Notes: generated from the letters alone by a model not told the origin. 64,000 nucleotides of DNA from Chloroflexota bacterium (GCA_022561385.1 JADFRG010000009.1:9051-73050), one strand, 5' to 3'; numbered from the stretch's first letter, positions 51,750-63,840 are shown. Numbers and translations are program-made.

Positions 51750-52227
51750 CGCCTCACAAGACGATCGAGCAGAGATACTCCGGCCGGATGGCTCTTATCC
51801 GCGGGCCTAGGCGACTCAGATGTAAATCGTTGTAGGACGGGGATGTTTATGCCGGAGGAGGTCCGGTACAGTCCGGCTGTCTCATCCATTTTTGAGCGGG
51901 TGGGTGGCGGAGATTGACGGGAGGTCAGGCACGAGACGCGCTTCTCGATGCCTAACGAACGGAATCTGCAGTTATCTTTACCGGCATCCGCGGCGCGCCT
52001 GGTTCGGCGTGGGGCCATCAGAGGGTTCTGACCGTGGAAAACGTGCCGTCAGATCTAATCGCGATCGCGCACGAGGTTTTGTAGAGAACACTCTTTGCTC
52101 GCAATTCTGCACATATCGATTCTCAAGATTAGACGGCAATCACTCGCATATACTCGATAATCCAATCGTATATGGGCCGCCTCGATCTAAATTATGGAAA
52201 TGGATGGGCATTGTCCATCCAATAATA

Positions 52228-52234
52228 GTTAGGC
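52228..52234 (+). mobile_element. First cassette core site GTTAGGC (attI-like or remnant attC R' box)
   Basis: GTTRRRY match, complementary to GCCTAAC at 53085; preceded by TGGATGG/CCATCCA hairpin. Confidence 0.45.
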
Positions 52235-54090: not shown

Positions 54091-54291
54091 CCAGTCGCGT
54101 AGAGGAATACTGAAAAGACCTCGACCCATGCAATGGGTCAAAGTAGCGAAGCTTGGACCTCTAGCCCAGAGTTCTAGGCCCACTCGAAATAGTCAAACTC
54201 GCAACTGTTCGAATCGAAGAAACTAAGGCCGCCGCGCCATTTCATCATGATTATTGAGTGTTCTTTGGCTCCTATCTTCAGGATGAATGCG

Positions 54292-54494
54292 AGCTAACAA
54301 CTCACTGGAGCGGACCCGGCATCCAATTTCATCTGCTGGGGTTGTAAACAGGTAATCCCATCGTCGCTGTGGGGTGACACTCCAACTTATCATCGCAGCC
54401 AGGCCGACTTCGCAGGAGGTCGGGTATTGTCGTCTACGTCGGGCCGCTCCCCGCATAAGAACGCGGGATCTTCGACAGCTCGCAGTCGTTAGGT
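54292..54494 (+). mobile_element. attC site with 27-nt insertion in L' box
   Basis: AGCTAAC-aactc-ACTGGAGCGGACCCGG ... CGGGCCGCTC[54450-54476]AGCTC-gcagtc-GTTAGGT. Confidence 0.85.
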
Positions 54495-54546
54495 TTTACA
54501 AACCTAGCGAATAGATTGTAGTGGACTATAAGGAGATAATTGAATT

Positions 54547-54966
54547 ATGGTAGATGTGAAGATAAAGCTTTCAGCATTATGGGCAGCTCGAATGTTAACT
54601 GGTTTGCAGGGGGATACGCTGCGATCTAGTGATGCGGTATCTTTAAAGGAATTAATAGCGGGAGAAACCGCTGTACCAGTAACTCGTGAATTGTTGTTGG
54701 TATTCGCGATATTATTCGTGATTCCGATTTTTATGGTTTTCCTGTCAGTGGCGTTGAAGGATAAAGCGAATCGCCGAGCAAACATCATCTTAGGCATATT
54801 CTTTGTTGGGTTTGATCTCCTGTTTTTGATCTTGCTCTTATTTGTTCTTCCGGCATCTCCCGCTTATGACATATTTTTGGCATTTGTATACCCTGTGTTT
54901 ACTGGACTAGTTGTCTGGCATGCATGGAAGTGGCCTAAACAGGAAAGAGTGGAAGTCACACCATAG
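54547..54966 (+). CDS. DUF6326-like membrane protein
   Basis: VKIKLSALWAARML...P..M..LS..L....NR.ANI...WHAWKWP pattern. Confidence 0.72.
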   Translation: MVDVKIKLSALWAARMLTGLQGDTLRSSDAVSLKELIAGETAVPVTRELLLVFAILFVIPIFMVFLSVALKDKANRRANIILGIFFVGFDLLFLILLLFVLPASPAYDIFLAFVYPVFTGLVVWHAWKWPKQERVEVTP

Positions 54967-55073
54967 ATAGACGCTATCCGTTGGAACAGATAGCTGCGGC
55001 GCATAGCTGTGTTGAAAAAGGACACATAAAGTGAAATGTAGTCATAATTTTGGAACATAACAACAAACCCTAA
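54963..55073 (+). pseudogene. C-terminal remnant of MDR-family alcohol dehydrogenase
   Basis: [35 protein letters not shown], homologous to the end of 58303..59298. Confidence 0.82.
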
Positions 55074-55084
55074 CAAATTAGGAG
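55068..55084 (+). mobile_element. Collapsed attC (R'' and R' boxes fused)
   Basis: CCCTAAC-aaa-TTAGGAG, versus ACCTAACaaag[...]GTTAGGAG at the homologous junction 59293-59391. Confidence 0.65.
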
Positions 55085-55092
55085 GAATTCAA

Positions 55093-55809
55093 ATGACAAA
55101 TCGTATTGCCGAAACATCGCCACTTGTTTATGCAAGAGTTGCAGGGGGCTTGTGGCTAATTCTCGCCATATTCGGTGGCTTCGCATTTGTTTCTGTTTCA
55201 AGTCTTCTTGTGCCCGGAGAGGCCGCTGCAACAGTCAGTAATATCATGGCTTCTGAATCGCTATTCCGTATCGCCATTTTGAGCGATCTATTCAGCCAGA
55301 CGGTCTTTATAGTGTTGGTTCTAGTTTTGTACAAGTTACTCAAACCAGTGAACAATTTCGCTGCTTTGCTTATGGTTGTGTTCGTTATAGTCAGTGTCTC
55401 GCTACAGTCCATCAGTGCGCTTAACCAAATTGCTGTCCTGTTTCTATTGAGCGGTGCTGACTACTTGAGAGCTTTCCCCACAGATCAGTTGCCTGCTCTG
55501 GTGTTGTTATTTCTCAATATGCGCGAAGCTGGATTTGAGATTATCGCCCAGATATATTTTGGCCTTTGGCTCCTTCCCCTTGGTTATCTAGTTTACAAGT
55601 CGGGTTTCCTTCCCAGAATTCTGGCCGTCTTGTTGATAATTGCAGGTTTTGGCTATCTGATAAGTGTTGTTACATTCTTTCTTTTTCCCAACTTCGATAC
55701 GGATATTTCCCAGTTTACGTTTATTGGGGAAGTCACAATGCTCTTGTGGCTTTTGATTAAGGGTGTAAACGTCGAAAAGTGGGAAAAACGTGCTCTTGAA
55801 TCTGCCTGA
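55093..55809 (+). CDS. DUF4386 family membrane protein
   Basis: ARVAGGLWLI, LYKLLKPVN, FGLWLLPLGYLVYKSGFLPRILA, GE..MLLWLLIKG. Confidence 0.85.
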   Translation: MTNRIAETSPLVYARVAGGLWLILAIFGGFAFVSVSSLLVPGEAAATVSNIMASESLFRIAILSDLFSQTVFIVLVLVLYKLLKPVNNFAALLMVVFVIVSVSLQSISALNQIAVLFLLSGADYLRAFPTDQLPALVLLFLNMREAGFEIIAQIYFGLWLLPLGYLVYKSGFLPRILAVLLIIAGFGYLISVVTFFLFPNFDTDISQFTFIGEVTMLLWLLIKGVNVEKWEKRALESA

Positions 55810-55861
55810 ATATAACCCATGCCGAAGGGATAGGGACTTCGCTTTCGAGCCACTCCCCGGC

Positions 55862-55987
55862 GGACAACTTCTCCAAGACTCAAAGCGACGCGGATTTGGC
55901 CTGTGAGCAGGAGGGGCGGCATGGGTAGGGGCCGCGACGGACGCCGCAGGCAGAAGCTTCGTCACTCCGGCCGCGCCGGTATGGGCG
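55862..55987 (+). mobile_element. Possible heavily degenerate attC
   Basis: GGACAAC...ACTCAAAGCGACGCGG ... CCGCGCCG-GTATGGGCGG; the GGCGG matches the complement of the 56810 flank (GCCGCCTAAC). Confidence 0.3.
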
Positions 55988-56014
55988 GACAGAATCAATC
56001 ACACGGACTCGGAG

Positions 56015-56683
56015 GTGCTTATGGCTATTGAACCCGCGGGCTACGCTGCCCGTCTGGAGGTCGACTACCCGGAAAAGCTGGACCGGCTGACAACGTTCTT
56101 CCGAATAATCTGGATCATTCCGATCGCCATCATCCTGAGCCTCATCTCGGATGCTGGCCAGACGGTCACCAACACGGTTTTCCTCAATGAAGCCGGTGAG
56201 GTTACAAGGACAACTCAGCGGACGGCGGGTGGGCTGGCGAGTGGTCTCTCTGCAGTCACGGCCTTGATGATCCTATTCCGACAGCGTTATCCGCGCTGGT
56301 GGTTCGACTTTTCTCGCGAGCTGACCCGCTTCGGGGCCAGAGTCAACGCCTACGCGGCCCTGCTCACCGACCAGTACCCCTCGACCGTCGAAGAGCAGTC
56401 TGTCCACCTGGAGATCGACTACCCGGACGTGAAACGCGACCTGAATCGGTGGCTGCCACTGGTCAAGTGGTTCCTGGCGATCCCTCACTACATCGTTCTG
56501 CTAATTCTGGTGCCGCTAGCTGTCTTCGCCGTGCTTTTCGCTTGGTTCGCGATACTCTTCACCGGCCGATACCCGAGAGGTCTGTTCGACTTTGTCGTGG
56601 GAGTGGGCAGGTGGGGCCTGCGCGTCGGGGCGTACGCCTTCCTGCTCGTCACAGATCAATATCCGCCGTTCAGCATGCGCTAG
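56015..56683 (+). CDS. DUF4389 family membrane protein
   Basis: Two repeats of LxRxxxFFR/LNRWLPLVKWFLAIPH ... YPR.LFDF ... TDQYP. Confidence 0.85.
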   Translation: MLMAIEPAGYAARLEVDYPEKLDRLTTFFRIIWIIPIAIILSLISDAGQTVTNTVFLNEAGEVTRTTQRTAGGLASGLSAVTALMILFRQRYPRWWFDFSRELTRFGARVNAYAALLTDQYPSTVEEQSVHLEIDYPDVKRDLNRWLPLVKWFLAIPHYIVLLILVPLAVFAVLFAWFAILFTGRYPRGLFDFVVGVGRWGLRVGAYAFLLVTDQYPPFSMR

Positions 56684-56809
56684 CACCCATCGTAGCTAAG
56701 CTCAAGGACCTCTGTCGGCCGGTAGCTGCCTCTGCGTCGGCTGCGGGGCAGCCATACTCCAGGCTCATCAAACTTCGATAGATCAGCCTTCGAGGTAACC
56801 CCAAATGCC

Positions 56810-56881
56810 GCCTAACCAATCAATGCTGCGGACCCCAAAAAGGATGACGCTTTTCGTGGCCGCTGATCTCAAACGTTAGGC
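56810..56881 (+). mobile_element. attC site (72 bp, intact)
   Basis: GCCTAAC-caatc-AATGCTGCGGACC ... GGCCGCTGAT-ctcaaac-GTTAGGC; R boxes perfectly complementary, EHB G and A. Confidence 0.92.
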
Positions 56882-56917
56882 AGCGTTGCTGACAATCGTC
56901 CAAAGCCTGCGCATTAT

Positions 56918-57286
56918 TTGCCGAAGCCTAAGGATATTCACCACTGGCAAGACAGAGAGTCGTTGATATTGCCTGGAGGATCTGACATAAAGAAACTGTT
57001 CGGCGTGTTTATTGTTTTGATGATGATGTTTGCGATTTCCGGGTGTGCGGCTGGTCCTAATGAATTGAGGGATCTTCCTGATGATGAAGGAAAGGTCGCC
57101 GGCTTTTGGCAGGGCCTAGGGCATGGAGTTATCTCTCCTTTTGCATTCTTGATTTCACTATTTTCCGATGCTGTGCATATCTATGAAGCCCATAACAATG
57201 GAGGCTGGTACAACTTCGGCTTCCTACTCGAGGCATCGATTATCTTTGGAGGAAGTGGACGCGGAGATGCAAGACGTTGGCGCTGA
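56918..57286 (+). CDS. Hypothetical lipoprotein cassette (likely start ATA 56987 behind GGAGGA)
   Basis: (M)KKLFGVFIVLMMMFAISGC signal/lipobox; AGFWQGLGHG...NNGGWYNFGF. Confidence 0.65.
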   Translation: MPKPKDIHHWQDRESLILPGGSDIKKLFGVFIVLMMMFAISGCAAGPNELRDLPDDEGKVAGFWQGLGHGVISPFAFLISLFSDAVHIYEAHNNGGWYNFGFLLEASIIFGGSGRGDARRWR

Positions 57287-57299
57287 TACGATGAACGCT

Positions 57300-57461
57300 G
57301 CCTACCGATGAGCTCGAGCACTCTCCGAGTGGATCCGGACCCGGGATGGGCTGACTTATGCAGGAGAAGGTGACCAATCGGACTGCTAGAAGGGTCTCTG
57401 AAGGTTCCATTTCCGGCCGCTTACCCAGAAAATGGGCATAGGCAGCTCGTGGCCGTTAGGG
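57300..57461 (+). mobile_element. Degenerate attC with two insertions (17 nt and 21 nt)
   Basis: GCCTACC-gatga-GCTCGAGC[57320-57336]GGACCCGG ... CCGGCCGCT[57422-57442]CAGCTC-gtggcc-GTTAGGG; core matches the 54292 site. Confidence 0.75.
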
Positions 57462-57549
57462 CGGCGCTCGCATTCGTATTGCGGGGATTTGCCACAAATA
57501 TCCCTATGAGACCAACACTGCCTCTCGCTTTAGTCTGGAGGATGACAAG

Positions 57550-58221
57550 ATGAGCATAGATATGAATATCGTCAGGCTTTTGGGCGCAGCACAATTGACT
57601 ATTTTTGTAGCCAGCATCCTCCATGAACGCCTGCTCGCATCAGTAGTTGGATCCGGGAGCATATCCGACTTCCTTGTGAATATTTCAAAAAACGTCACCC
57701 GGATGCGGATCAGTAATCTTCTTGCACTGGTTGACAGCATTGGAATCGTTGTCCTGGGAGTCCTGTTTTATAGCGTCTTCAGCAATAAGTACCCGATCAT
57801 CGCGCTTGTAGCCCTGGGATTCTACTTGGCTGAATCAATAACTCTGGCCGTGAGCAAGATTGGGGGCTTTGCTCTGATTCCTTTAAGCCAGGAATTCGTA
57901 GAGGCGGGCGCTCCAGAACCCTCCTACTTTCAAACGCTGGGTGACTTCTTGTATTACGGCGTTGATAGACAGGGAGACCGCATACATAATCTATTCTTCT
58001 GCCTGGGCGGAATACTGTGGTACTACCTACTTCTCATATCGGGGGGCATCCCACAGGCATTATCTCTCTGGGGCCTTGTAGCGGTCAGCCTGCTATTAAT
58101 ACCTGTCCTGTTGCTGCTCTATGATCGTGATTTCAGTCACCCCGTAATGGCAGTCGGACTTCTAAACCTTCCATTCGAACTCGTTCTAGGGCTATGGCTG
58201 ATCGTTAAGGGATTCAATTAA
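57550..58221 (+). CDS. DUF4386 family membrane protein (C-terminus probably shortened by nonsense mutation)
   Basis: FFCLGGILWYYLLLIS..IPQALSLWGL ... PFELVLGLWLIVKGFN. Confidence 0.82.
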   Translation: MSIDMNIVRLLGAAQLTIFVASILHERLLASVVGSGSISDFLVNISKNVTRMRISNLLALVDSIGIVVLGVLFYSVFSNKYPIIALVALGFYLAESITLAVSKIGGFALIPLSQEFVEAGAPEPSYFQTLGDFLYYGVDRQGDRIHNLFFCLGGILWYYLLLISGGIPQALSLWGLVAVSLLLIPVLLLLYDRDFSHPVMAVGLLNLPFELVLGLWLIVKGFN

Positions 58222-58302
58222 TCTGCAATCTTTTCCGAGTCTGCTAAAACTAATATGGCCGAAGATAGAATTACCGGATCAAAGTAAATTTGGAGGAATC
58301 TC

Positions 58303-59298
58303 ATGAAGGCGATTGTATACACAGAATACGGCCCACCGGATGTTCTTCAGCTCAAAGAGGTAGGTAAACCTTCTCCCAATGACAATGAAGTACTGATAAA
58401 AGTTCATGCGGCATCCGTAAATCCACTTGACTGGCATTTACTGAGAGCTACACCGTTCCTGGTCCGCCTAACGGAGGGGCTTCTAAAACCAAAAAAAGAG
58501 ATACTCGGAGCCGACGTAGCGGGGCGGGTTGAAGAGGTTGGAAAAAATGTAAAGCAGTTTCAAACAGGTGATGAGGTACTTGGGGACTTTTTCGTGGACG
58601 GTTTAGGCGGTTTTGCCGAGTATGTATGTGTTCCTGAAGATGCAGCATTAGTACAAAAACCGACCAATCTGACATTCGAGGAAGCAGCGGCCGTACCTGT
58701 AGCGGCAGTCACCGCCCTGCAGGGTCTTCGCGATAAAGGACAGGTTCAGCCCGGGCAAAAGGTTTTGATCAATGGTGCGTCTGGGGGTGTGGGTACGTTT
58801 GCGGTGCAGATTGCCAAATCGTTCGGGGCTGAGGTTACTGGAGTGTGCAGTACGAGGAATTTGGACATGGTGCGCTCAATTGGTGCAGACCATGTCATTG
58901 ATTACACACAAGAGGATTTCACCCAAAACGGGCAGCGTTATGACCTCATTGCCGATGCTGTGGGAAATCGTTCGGTTTCAGATTATGGGCGTGCATTAGG
59001 TCCCAAGGGAATCTGCGTCATCATCGGATATTCTTCCCCGGTTCTCTTGTTCCAACATACGTTCCAAGGAGCATGGATTTCAATGACCGGGAGTAAGAGA
59101 ATCGGTCTCATGGGGACGATGAAACCAAACAAGAAAGATTTGGTTTTTATGAAAGGGCTTCTTGAAGCGGGCAAAGTAGTGCCTGTTATCGATCGACGTT
59201 ACCCGTTAAGTGAGGTTGCTGAAGCTATCCGGTATCTTGAAGGTGGACACGCCCAAGGAAAAGTAGTCATAACCGTGGGACATAACGACAAAACCTAA
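58303..59298 (+). CDS. NAD(P)-dependent MDR-family (quinone-reductase-like) alcohol dehydrogenase
   Basis: VHAASVNPLDW, G.DVAG, INGASGGVGTFAVQIAK, PVIDRRYPL; lacks GHE zinc motif; stop overlaps attC R''. Confidence 0.9.
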   Translation: MKAIVYTEYGPPDVLQLKEVGKPSPNDNEVLIKVHAASVNPLDWHLLRATPFLVRLTEGLLKPKKEILGADVAGRVEEVGKNVKQFQTGDEVLGDFFVDGLGGFAEYVCVPEDAALVQKPTNLTFEEAAAVPVAAVTALQGLRDKGQVQPGQKVLINGASGGVGTFAVQIAKSFGAEVTGVCSTRNLDMVRSIGADHVIDYTQEDFTQNGQRYDLIADAVGNRSVSDYGRALGPKGICVIIGYSSPVLLFQHTFQGAWISMTGSKRIGLMGTMKPNKKDLVFMKGLLEAGKVVPVIDRRYPLSEVAEAIRYLEGGHAQGKVVITVGHNDKT

Positions 59299-59390
59299 CA
59301 AAGCGCTGCCCCGCCAAGAACGCGGGATCCTCGACACCCGACCGCTATTCCGCTGCGCTTCATAGCGGTAGGTGAGCTTGGTCGTTAGGA
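59293..59390 (+). mobile_element. attC site with 26-nt insertion in L'' box
   Basis: ACCTAAC-aaagc-GCTGC[59310-59335]ACCCGACCGCTAT...ATAGCGGTAGGTGAGC-ttggtc-GTTAGGA; removal gives a canonical 72-bp attC. Confidence 0.88.
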
Positions 59391-63372: not shown

Positions 63373-63549
63373 GGAGGCTCAGCCTCTCGGCTCGCGTAGG
63401 ACGCGGAACTAAGATTCAGCACAATAAGAATCAAGGTCCCCGGTGACCTTGAATGGCACATTCAGGTCGTCTTTGTTTTTGCGGTTTCAAGCGGTCTTCA
63501 TGAGATGCTTCGCATGGAGACAATATCGGCCTCATACACTCCCTGGAGC
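63373..63549. repeat. Dispersed repeat A, copy 2
   Basis: See 61547..61725. Confidence 0.88.
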
Positions 63550-63840
63550 ACTCTGCGAGTGGAGCCGGGCCCGGCATCACCCCACAAGATTGGCTGATCT
63601 ACCAACCGATCCGGCTGCGACCAGGGTCTGGAACTAAATCGATACTTGGAAAGTTATTGACAGTGACGAGGTAACGATAGGCCGCCTGAAATCGGAATTA
63701 TAGGCAATCGGATTCGCAGATTGGTTTTCAGAACAGACCTTCTCATAATCAATCGGGGTTAGGCCGTTATGGTCTGGAGCGGCCGAAGAAATCTAGCCCC
63801 TTGCGGTTCATATGAAGAAGGCGGTCACATGGAATTGGCG

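Follow-up and report, generated by a model that had tools for sequence, protein, structure and literature searches.

The 64,000-nucleotide stretch of Chloroflexota DNA analysed here (GCA_022561385.1, JADFRG010000009.1:9051-73050; hereafter the window) corresponds to contig C1 of a 2.9-Mb metagenome-assembled genome (MAG) of 94 contigs, labelled G000, and carries an integron cassette array in which attC recombination sites are interrupted by very small hairpin-forming inserts. Four such inserts had been reported in a preliminary description, and all four are present where it placed them, within one ambiguous base. Two lie in attC site B, one each in sites A and C, and the short, canonical, insert-free site D provides an internal control (Table 1). 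Our boundaries are shifted one base to the left of the earlier ones, because one C is ambiguous in the comparison with empty sites. Inserts 1 and 2 share the motif CCCGC-N5-9-GCGGGATC, of which the window has three copies where 0.09 would be expected. All four insert sites are spanned without gaps by contigs (Logan) of four independent runs on marine sediment, and this reproduction makes an assembly artefact very unlikely; the inserts are also stable across samples from several studies.

The inserts share a common plan: one C, a G+C stem of 4-7 bp, a loop of 3-8 nt and a short unpaired 3' tail (ACAGG, ATCTTCGA or GGAGC). A unit measures 17-34 nt, or more when nested, and the inserts found in attC arms span 17-53 nt. 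The families that follow this plan include type I (CCCCGC-NAAGAAC-GCGGG-ATCTTCGA), the ACAGG type (CCCCC-AAAGAAC-GGGG-ACAGG), type II (CCCTGGCC-TGAC-CGCCAGG-ACAGG) and types III, IV, V and VI. Type I has the loop AAGAAC in common with the ACAGG type, whose tail ACAGG is found in types II, III and V as well, and a hybrid was found at C47:2417 (contigs of G000 are cited by their C numbers). Roughly 45-50 recognisable copies were tallied in this genome. Each of the four window inserts consists of a 4-5-bp hairpin and a 3' tail, with a predicted energy of -2.5 to -5.3 kcal/mol (z of -1.6 to -2.3; insert 1 is at -5.3), and the side hairpins of single units generally are predicted at -2.5 to -5.6 kcal/mol. 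Folding of site C with and without its insert leaves the R box and the distal stem in place and adds a side hairpin, which gives a predicted three-way junction. The stems of type II vary little among copies. A longer form, type II-long (33-34 nt), has an extra 11-nt piece relative to type II, the first 7 nt of which are the reverse complement of the adjoining stem. Judged by its sequence, this piece is a signature of snap-back template switching, so that the elements would at the least be remodelled by replication errors. Ten related loci were scanned against Rfam, and the only match was a tRNA.

Most attC sites of the genome belong to one main family, R''(GCCTAAC)-NN-CTCGCTG-GAx-CGGACC-[centre]-GGCCGCT-CAGCTCGCAGCC-GTTAGGC, in which the centre is 73 nt long (39, 71 or 143 nt also occur) and the 5' arm carries the extra bases GAx and A, as in canonical attC. 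The host sites have the attributes by which attC is recognised, namely R''/R' boxes (RYYYAAC / GTTRRRY), paired arms, extra bases on the 5' arm, cassettes and an IntI encoded in the same genome. Genes for IntI scoring above the TIGR02249 cut-off lie on C12 and C11 and a fragment lies on C25, and the cassette arrays are spread across many small contigs; a search with the same profile found no intI in the window (contig C1). As a crude fold-based attC finder and loose regular expressions gave mostly false positives, the census of sites was taken by anchored parsing, which yielded 43 family-1 attC in G000 and a further 56 in five of the 13 congeneric genomes (G001-G013), 95 being left once mis-parsed rows had been dropped. 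Among 40 relatives, exact matches to the 3'-arm pattern were confined to the genus.

Nearly half of the 3' arms in this census are filled (45/95; type I 5-6, type II 15, type II-long or nested 13, type III 4, type V 5), as are 15 of 69 5' arms (ACAGG type 7, with type I and type IV also represented). The inserts occupy three fixed points. The 3' arm has one, GGCCGCT^CAGCTCG. The other two belong to the 5' arm: CTCGCTG^GAx, used by type I, and GAx^CGGACC, the bulge of the extrahelical base, where the ACAGG type is found and also type IV. In a site with paired arms, the three points oppose each other across the internal loop of the L box, and they are unpaired in the folded strand. All 60 inserts have top-strand polarity, irrespective of the arm. 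About 70% of the recognisable copies lie in attC arms, which make up about 0.2% of the DNA of the genome (an approximate tally). In this respect the catalogue of filled sites bears out the earlier proposal: a family of micro-elements is repeated at the extrahelical position of the L box or opposite it, in a fixed orientation and lacking target duplications. The R' boxes are canonical in 23 of 45 filled and 20 of 50 empty sites, and mismatches in the arm flanks are slightly commoner in filled than in empty sites (1.0 versus 0.4 per 21 nt). Simple decay of the filled sites is made less likely by how often filling occurs, by its conservation from one species to another and by the intact R' boxes. 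The inactivation of sites and freezing of cassettes expected in the preliminary description were put too strongly.

The inserts are genuine insertions into pre-existing attC sites, because homologous sites without them exist. Their removal yields the consensus arm of dozens of empty sites, so that canonical attC pairing is indeed restored, as had been claimed, and empty and filled versions of the same cassette family do occur. The long attC of site A has an empty paralogue at C75:15109, which reads ...GTCGGGCCGCT|CAGCTCGCAGCC, and a second paralogue (C61) in which both arms hold different inserts. Site C belongs to a different, short attC family, found in 82 metagenome contigs, that ends a cassette encoding an MDR dehydrogenase (ADH). 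A scan of metagenomes with AACAAAGCGCTG-N0-30-CACCCGACCGC, the counts of which include the window and a MAG labelled Desulfobacteria, gave 73 empty and 9 filled sites of this family; type I is present in six of them and an unrelated 25-nt sequence, CCCTTCGACTTCGCTCAGGAGGGGC, sits at the same nucleotide in the other three. At loci L089 and L093, filled by type VI, the downstream neighbour is 98-99% identical to that of empty loci. A maximum-likelihood tree of 61 ADH cassette ends requires four changes to account for the five type I copies; well-supported branches force at least two of these changes, and the copies cluster no more than shuffled labels do. The ADH cassette itself (window 58303-59298, loci L079-L158) circulates widely and is common in sediment metagenomes: at least 82 metagenome contigs, drawn from many samples, carry it next to a wide variety of downstream neighbours, and one copy lies in the MAG labelled Desulfobacteria (L071).

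The sequences surrounding a given element differ from site to site. Type I is flanked by GGCCGCT in 3' arms, by CTCGCTG in 5' arms and by GCGCTG in the unrelated ADH attC family, and an identical 33-34-nt type II-long element is found in attC backbones with centres of 73, 71 and 39 nt. As these flanks of type I are non-homologous, we excluded gene conversion between attC arms as the sole mechanism. The target flanks are only loosely alike, (G)CT(G)^C/G, and no target duplication was seen at any of the empty/filled junctions compared.

Relatives of the individual window inserts recur at the same positions elsewhere in the genome. The element of insert 1 is also present on C10 (three times) and C61 (twice), and C67 bears a variant; TACCCAGAAAACTGGCACAAG stands at the position of insert 3 on C14 (three times) and C10; and relatives of insert 4, CACTCTGCGAGTGGAGC and CACCCTATGGGTGGAGC, occupy the same point on C47, C7, C51 and C61 and in the congener G006. 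This recurrence at the second 5'-arm hot spot rules out insert 4 being ordinary arm sequence that was mis-parsed. The 5' arm of site B probably starts with GATGAAC (57290) rather than GCCTACC, and the short segment at its first hot spot appears to be a third, degenerate insert of this site, since sites on C61 read CTCGCTG[CCCCGC..TTCGA]GAG[CACTCTGCGAGTGGAG]CGGACC. Towards the end of the window, a further type IV hairpin lies in an attC-like 5' arm (63530-63574), for which no 3' arm was recognisable before the GTTAGGC at 63758.

Table 1. attC sites, micro-hairpin inserts and array start in the window (positions counted from its first nucleotide).
Feature	Position	Strand	Description
attI-like array start	52215..52234	+	CCATCCAATAATAGTTAGGC; matches the attI beside the intI fragment on C25
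attC site A	54289..54494	+	Long type, ~125 nt separating the arms; R'' region GCGAGCTAAC, 5' arm CTCACTGGAGCGGACCCGG, 3' arm GGGCCGCT^CAGCTCGCAGTC, R' GTTAGGT; paralogues on G000:C75 (empty) and C61 (differently filled)
Type I micro-hairpin (insert 1)	54449..54475	+	CCCCGCATAAGAACGCGGGATCTTCGA; 3' arm of site A, flanks GGCCGCT / CAGCTCG
attC site D	56810..56881	+	Short, canonical, insert-free; internal control
attC site B	57290..57461	+	73 nt separating the arms, as in the main family; R' GTTAGGG, R'' degenerate (GATGAAC)
Candidate degenerate insert	57301..57317	+	CCTACCGATGAGCTCGA; first 5'-arm hot spot of site B, after GCTG; ends with the type I tail CTCGA
Type IV micro-hairpin (insert 4)	57319..57335	+	CACTCTCCGAGTGGATC; second 5'-arm hot spot of site B, flanks ..GAGC / CGGACC
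Type III micro-hairpin (insert 3)	57422..57442	+	TACCCAGAAAATGGGCATAGG; 3' arm of site B, flanks GGCCGCT / CAGCTCG
attC site C	59293..59390	+	ADH (MDR dehydrogenase) cassette; ACCTAAC AAAGCGCTG^CACCCGACCGCTAT ... GTTAGGA
Type I micro-hairpin (insert 2)	59309..59334	+	CCCCGCCAAGAACGCGGGATCCTCGA; 5' arm of site C, directly 3' of the extrahelical G; flanks GCGCTG / CACCCG
Type IV micro-hairpin	63549..63564	+	CACTCTGCGAGTGGAG; in an attC-like 5' arm

The same elements also occur outside attC. The transposase gene of an IS110-family insertion sequence (IS) on the array contig C47 contains three type II inserts of 24, 24 and 25 nt, on the strand opposite to the gene, and precisely these three segments are missing from a 69%-identical homologue in the congener G011. 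The reading frame stays open through both 24-nt copies, as it does through a nested copy in an IS481-like gene; overall, the C47 gene is split over two frames by its micro-hairpin inserts. This IS110-family element, which resembles IS1111-attC elements, occupies G000:C47:2490-3780 in the 5' arm of an attC, two bases from a hot spot; AATCAACTCGC is found at both of its bounds, and the same element with the same bounds is present in G011:C241. Further copies of the micro-hairpins lie in a second IS110-type gene (C43), in the IS481-like gene (C2) and in a few other non-attC places, several of them within other palindromes. Nesting occurs as well: a type V-like hairpin sits within type II in three attC sites on C43, type II sits within type V on C2, and C75 shows further accretion.

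Beyond the genus, the type II pattern was found in 52 of 401 sampled Anaerolineae genomes (13%; 45 of 216 genera), with up to 59 copies, while a control with the pattern written backwards gave five hits overall. At 20 places sampled from three of these genomes, type II often has a short inverted repeat on either side and so occupies the loop of a further palindrome. Type I is far less common: 185,579 species were scanned for it and gave 29 loci. About ten of these belong to attC arms, where the hot spots are the same and the polarity is always that of the top strand, and nearly all of the ten come from Anaerolineae or Chloroflexota MAGs. Most of the other loci that match the type I pattern have no tail and resemble unrelated hairpins or terminators. 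The preliminary description had proposed an attC-targeting family, and this part of it needs to be restated: the elements are enriched in attC in this genome, but they are not specific for it, as the copies in IS110- and IS481-type genes and the distribution among the Anaerolineae indicate.

These observations lead us to think that the inserts are probably copies of very small, non-autonomous, hairpin-forming mobile repeats that colonised the loops of attC sites. On this reading they are micro-repeats akin to repetitive extragenic palindromic (REP) sequences and to the small dispersed repeats (SDR) of cyanobacteria, and neither a dedicated attC parasite nor an excision scar. The uniform polarity, the unpaired positions of the hairpins and the lack of target duplication suggest that they are copied into single-stranded or folded DNA. 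Recognition of a double-stranded target sequence is disfavoured, because the two arms of attC are inverted repeats and would give opposite orientations, and the inserts all share one polarity. Once made, insertions would survive mainly where unpaired or dispensable DNA tolerates them, as in loops and IS genes, and the folded attC sites of this sedentary integron would therefore be their main habitat. For integron recombination, the integrase has to read attC as a folded strand, and both the choice of strand and the efficiency hinge on the extrahelical bases of the L box. Each filled site would have a three-way (or four-way) junction at the point of action of these bases and of the integrase subunit that does not cleave, and this junction probably lowers or alters recombination without abolishing the site. 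Since the extrahelical bases guide the choice of strand (PMC5027507), a hairpin at the L box should matter, above all on the 3' arm.

Several observations weigh against such a colonisation by mobile repeats. No polymorphism for presence or absence was seen at the strain level, the Logan contigs of the four runs containing filled alleles only at the window's sites (contigs hide rare variants), and the nearest empty ADH cassettes are merely 80-87% identical upstream. Individually the hairpins are weak (z of about -2). Some of the scatter on the ADH tree could be due to recombination between attC sites that resemble each other, and the target context is loose, so that the apparent hot spots may partly be an effect of survivorship. 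The search for a mobilising enzyme adds to these points. Y1/RAYT transposases (PF01797) were found in none of the 14 genomes of the genus, although these MAGs are 52-92% complete and the absence is not absolute; in other Anaerolineae, no type I or type II copy lies within 1.5 kb of the six Y1 genes inspected; and no reverse transcriptase (RVT_1) was found in this genome. Y1_Tnp is present in 36 of 42 other Anaerolineae genomes, at similar rates in those with type II (11/12) and without it (25/30), and we rejected an association of the micro-hairpins with Y1/RAYT on these grounds and on its absence from the focal genus. The link to HUH (Y1) transposases put forward in the preliminary description is therefore not borne out in this genus. 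Of the co-occurring elements that it suggested looking for, one of the IS110 family does reside in an attC 5' arm of this genome. The only hairpin- or attC-directed enzymes that we could place in the arrays are IntI and IS110-type recombinases, and no mechanistic tie between either of them and the inserts was found.

In the absence of a transposase candidate, one might do without a dedicated enzyme altogether, the hairpins being produced by snap-back or microhomology-driven template switching at stalled replication forks and then spread by gene conversion among attC sites. The 11-nt piece of type II-long bears the mark of snap-back synthesis, the inserts are located at junctions of secondary structure and target duplications are lacking, all of which suits this explanation. 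However, the units are discrete and reappear with the same ends, and always with the same polarity, at sites that share no homology, both in different genomes and in phyla-level MAGs, and such precision and spread are more easily explained by a site- or structure-specific catalyst; we consider an origin without any enzyme quite unlikely. Slightly less likely still, to our minds, is that the hairpins are an optional structural module of attC in this lineage, whose three-way junction is used by the cognate IntI or an accessory factor, for instance in tuning the recombination rate or the choice of strand, and which is inherited with the sites and shuffled among them by recombination. About 45% of 3' arms are filled across five species, with R' boxes as canonical as those of empty sites; the hairpin plan is preserved despite differing sequences; the loop and tail of type I are conserved across distant MAGs; and the fixed positions are at or opposite extrahelical bases, known determinants of strand selectivity (PMC5027507). 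A built-in module is hard to reconcile with the presence of the same elements in transposase genes, in non-attC DNA and in other palindromes, with flanks that share no homology, so that shuffling of arms cannot move the hairpins, or with the minority status of filled sites in the ADH family (9/82), and the nested copies resemble clutter rather than design.

The inserts could also have been left by IS1111-attC-type IS or group IIC-attC introns upon excision, or be artefacts of assembly. The IS110-family element two bases from a hot spot and the fragmentation of the arrays over many small contigs, typical of repeat-induced assembly trouble, speak for this. Yet the inserts are unlike the ends of the C47 element, the same inserts occur far from any IS, and independent runs and genomes reproduce them. 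Excision of IS110-family elements is precise and, to our knowledge, introns are not excised from DNA. The idea of an excision scar, raised in the preliminary description, finds no support in our data, as the inserts form discrete families in many contexts, and we regard scars and artefacts alike as extremely improbable. Mobile micro-repeats, which we prefer to all three of these explanations, might be more unusual than those already known. They might constitute a distinct class of ultra-small mobile DNA, written into unpaired loops of folded single-stranded DNA by an enzyme other than Y1/RAYT; with the L box turned into a three-way junction, they would switch the immobility or the choice of strand of individual cassettes. 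The role of writing enzyme might then fall to the integron's own integrase, to a recombinase of the IS110 type or to a protein not yet recognised. This is a speculative and, in our view, unlikely extension; if it were true, integron dynamics would gain a further level of control or of parasitism.

Two known kinds of element come closest, REP sequences with REPINs and the SDR. The former are imperfect palindromes of 20-40 nt mobilised by RAYT (Y1, IS200-like) transposases (Bertels & Rainey 2011, PMC3116915). Like them, the micro-hairpins are short, non-autonomous and repeated, are predicted to form single-stranded hairpins, lie next to or within one another and generate no target duplication. 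However, no unit contains GTAG, the families starting with C(C/A)C and ending with ACAGG, TCGA or GGAGC; they are singlets and not the inverted doublets of REPINs; and only tens of copies exist, mostly inside attC and otherwise in transposase genes instead of ordinary intergenic DNA. Moreover, the RAYT/Y1 gene that would be expected is absent from the 14 genomes of the genus and, at the six Y1 genes inspected in other Anaerolineae, adjoins no copies. The statement that the inserts are far smaller than REPs must be withdrawn, since REPs and SDRs, at 20-40 nt, are of the same size class. The SDR of heterocystous cyanobacteria are very small mobile repeated elements of 21-27 nt, as Elhai et al. 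reportedly described in 2008 (Genome Res 18:1484; cited in PMC3116915). By description, the only basis on which we compared them, SDR are like the micro-hairpins in size class, in forming several families with one hairpin plan, in being embedded in other repeats and in being present or absent between relatives, but they belong to a different phylum and have different sequences. We know of no link between SDR and integrons or any recombination site.

Other systems are more distant. IS1111-attC elements and group IIC-attC introns are autonomous, measure 1.2-2 kb and code for either a DEDD recombinase or a reverse transcriptase. Targeting by the IS1111/IS110 family has been described (bioRxiv 10.1101/2024.04.26.591405). 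The micro-hairpins share with IS1111-attC elements and group IIC-attC introns the landing in attC in one orientation, but they are non-coding and 17-34 nt long, which is too small for the domains of a ribozyme, and they themselves interrupt an IS110 transposase gene. The lack of target-site duplication at the junctions compared distinguishes them from miniature inverted-repeat transposable elements. The palindromic elements of Rickettsia are 100-150 bp long and are inserted in frame into genes; some micro-hairpins in transposase genes likewise keep the frame open, but their host genes encode transposases and not housekeeping functions. Finally, canonical attC sites have unpaired features of their own, namely extrahelical bases, an unpaired central spacer and a variable terminal structure (PMC5027507; Bouvier et al. 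2009, PMC2727003), and the extrahelical bases near L'' help the integrase to choose the bottom strand, bottom-strand recombination being lowered when they are placed on the other arm (Nivina et al. 2016, PMC5027507). The inserts lie at or opposite the first extrahelical position of the L box, in sites whose R''/R' boxes and bulged 5' arm are canonical. Unlike the canonical extrahelical elements, which are single bases on one arm, a whole hairpin protrudes here and does so from either arm, and whereas the known branched structures of attC are apical, in the variable terminal structure, the micro-hairpins lie in the L box. No description of hairpin inserts in attC L boxes was found in the one literature collection that we searched.

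The new aspect would be that very small mobile palindromes have integron recombination sites as their main habitat. Dozens of natural, near-identical attC variants, with or without a hairpin and on either arm, offer a ready-made test of the structural tolerance of the integrase and of the locking of cassettes. The micro-hairpins are among the smallest apparently mobile DNAs and are found in a genus without the enzyme usually blamed, and they thus bear on how REP-like sequences spread. In practical terms, attC finders based on covariance models may miss or mis-score sites filled with a hairpin.

Some minor observations concern the arrays and the hairpins found by the scans. Two attI-like kinds exist in the genome. 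One, CCATCCAATAATAGTTAGSC, opens the window array (Table 1) and the C25 array (C25:575-600), the latter beside the intI fragment; the other (C12:1500-1700 and C47:1300-1460) consists of three GGAAG(T/A)TCTTCC repeats followed by GTTAGGC. In the window and on C47, the array has an attI without an intI beside it. A kinship of type I with the GGAAG(T/A)TCTTCC repeats was considered and dropped, the resemblance being too weak. In Terriglobia / Acidiferrales MAGs (loci L052, L066 and L070), a hairpin, CCCCGCAAAGAACGCGGGATCT, lies within a larger repeated palindromic element (…GGCAGGGG … CCCTGCCCTACCC) of Acidobacteriota, which could be an unrelated convergence or part of a wider family. A Bacteroidota MAG (L078:970-1400) contains six to seven identical 55-nt tandem units, each with a hairpin CCCGCGAAAGAACGCGGGAT; we rejected a CRISPR array here, as the spacers are identical, and regard the locus as a plain 55-nt tandem repeat. 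At G000:C51:~4148 and at L058 (~2174, minus strand), we observed collapsed attC sites, in which an insert-bearing 5' arm directly abuts the 3' arm and the centre is absent.

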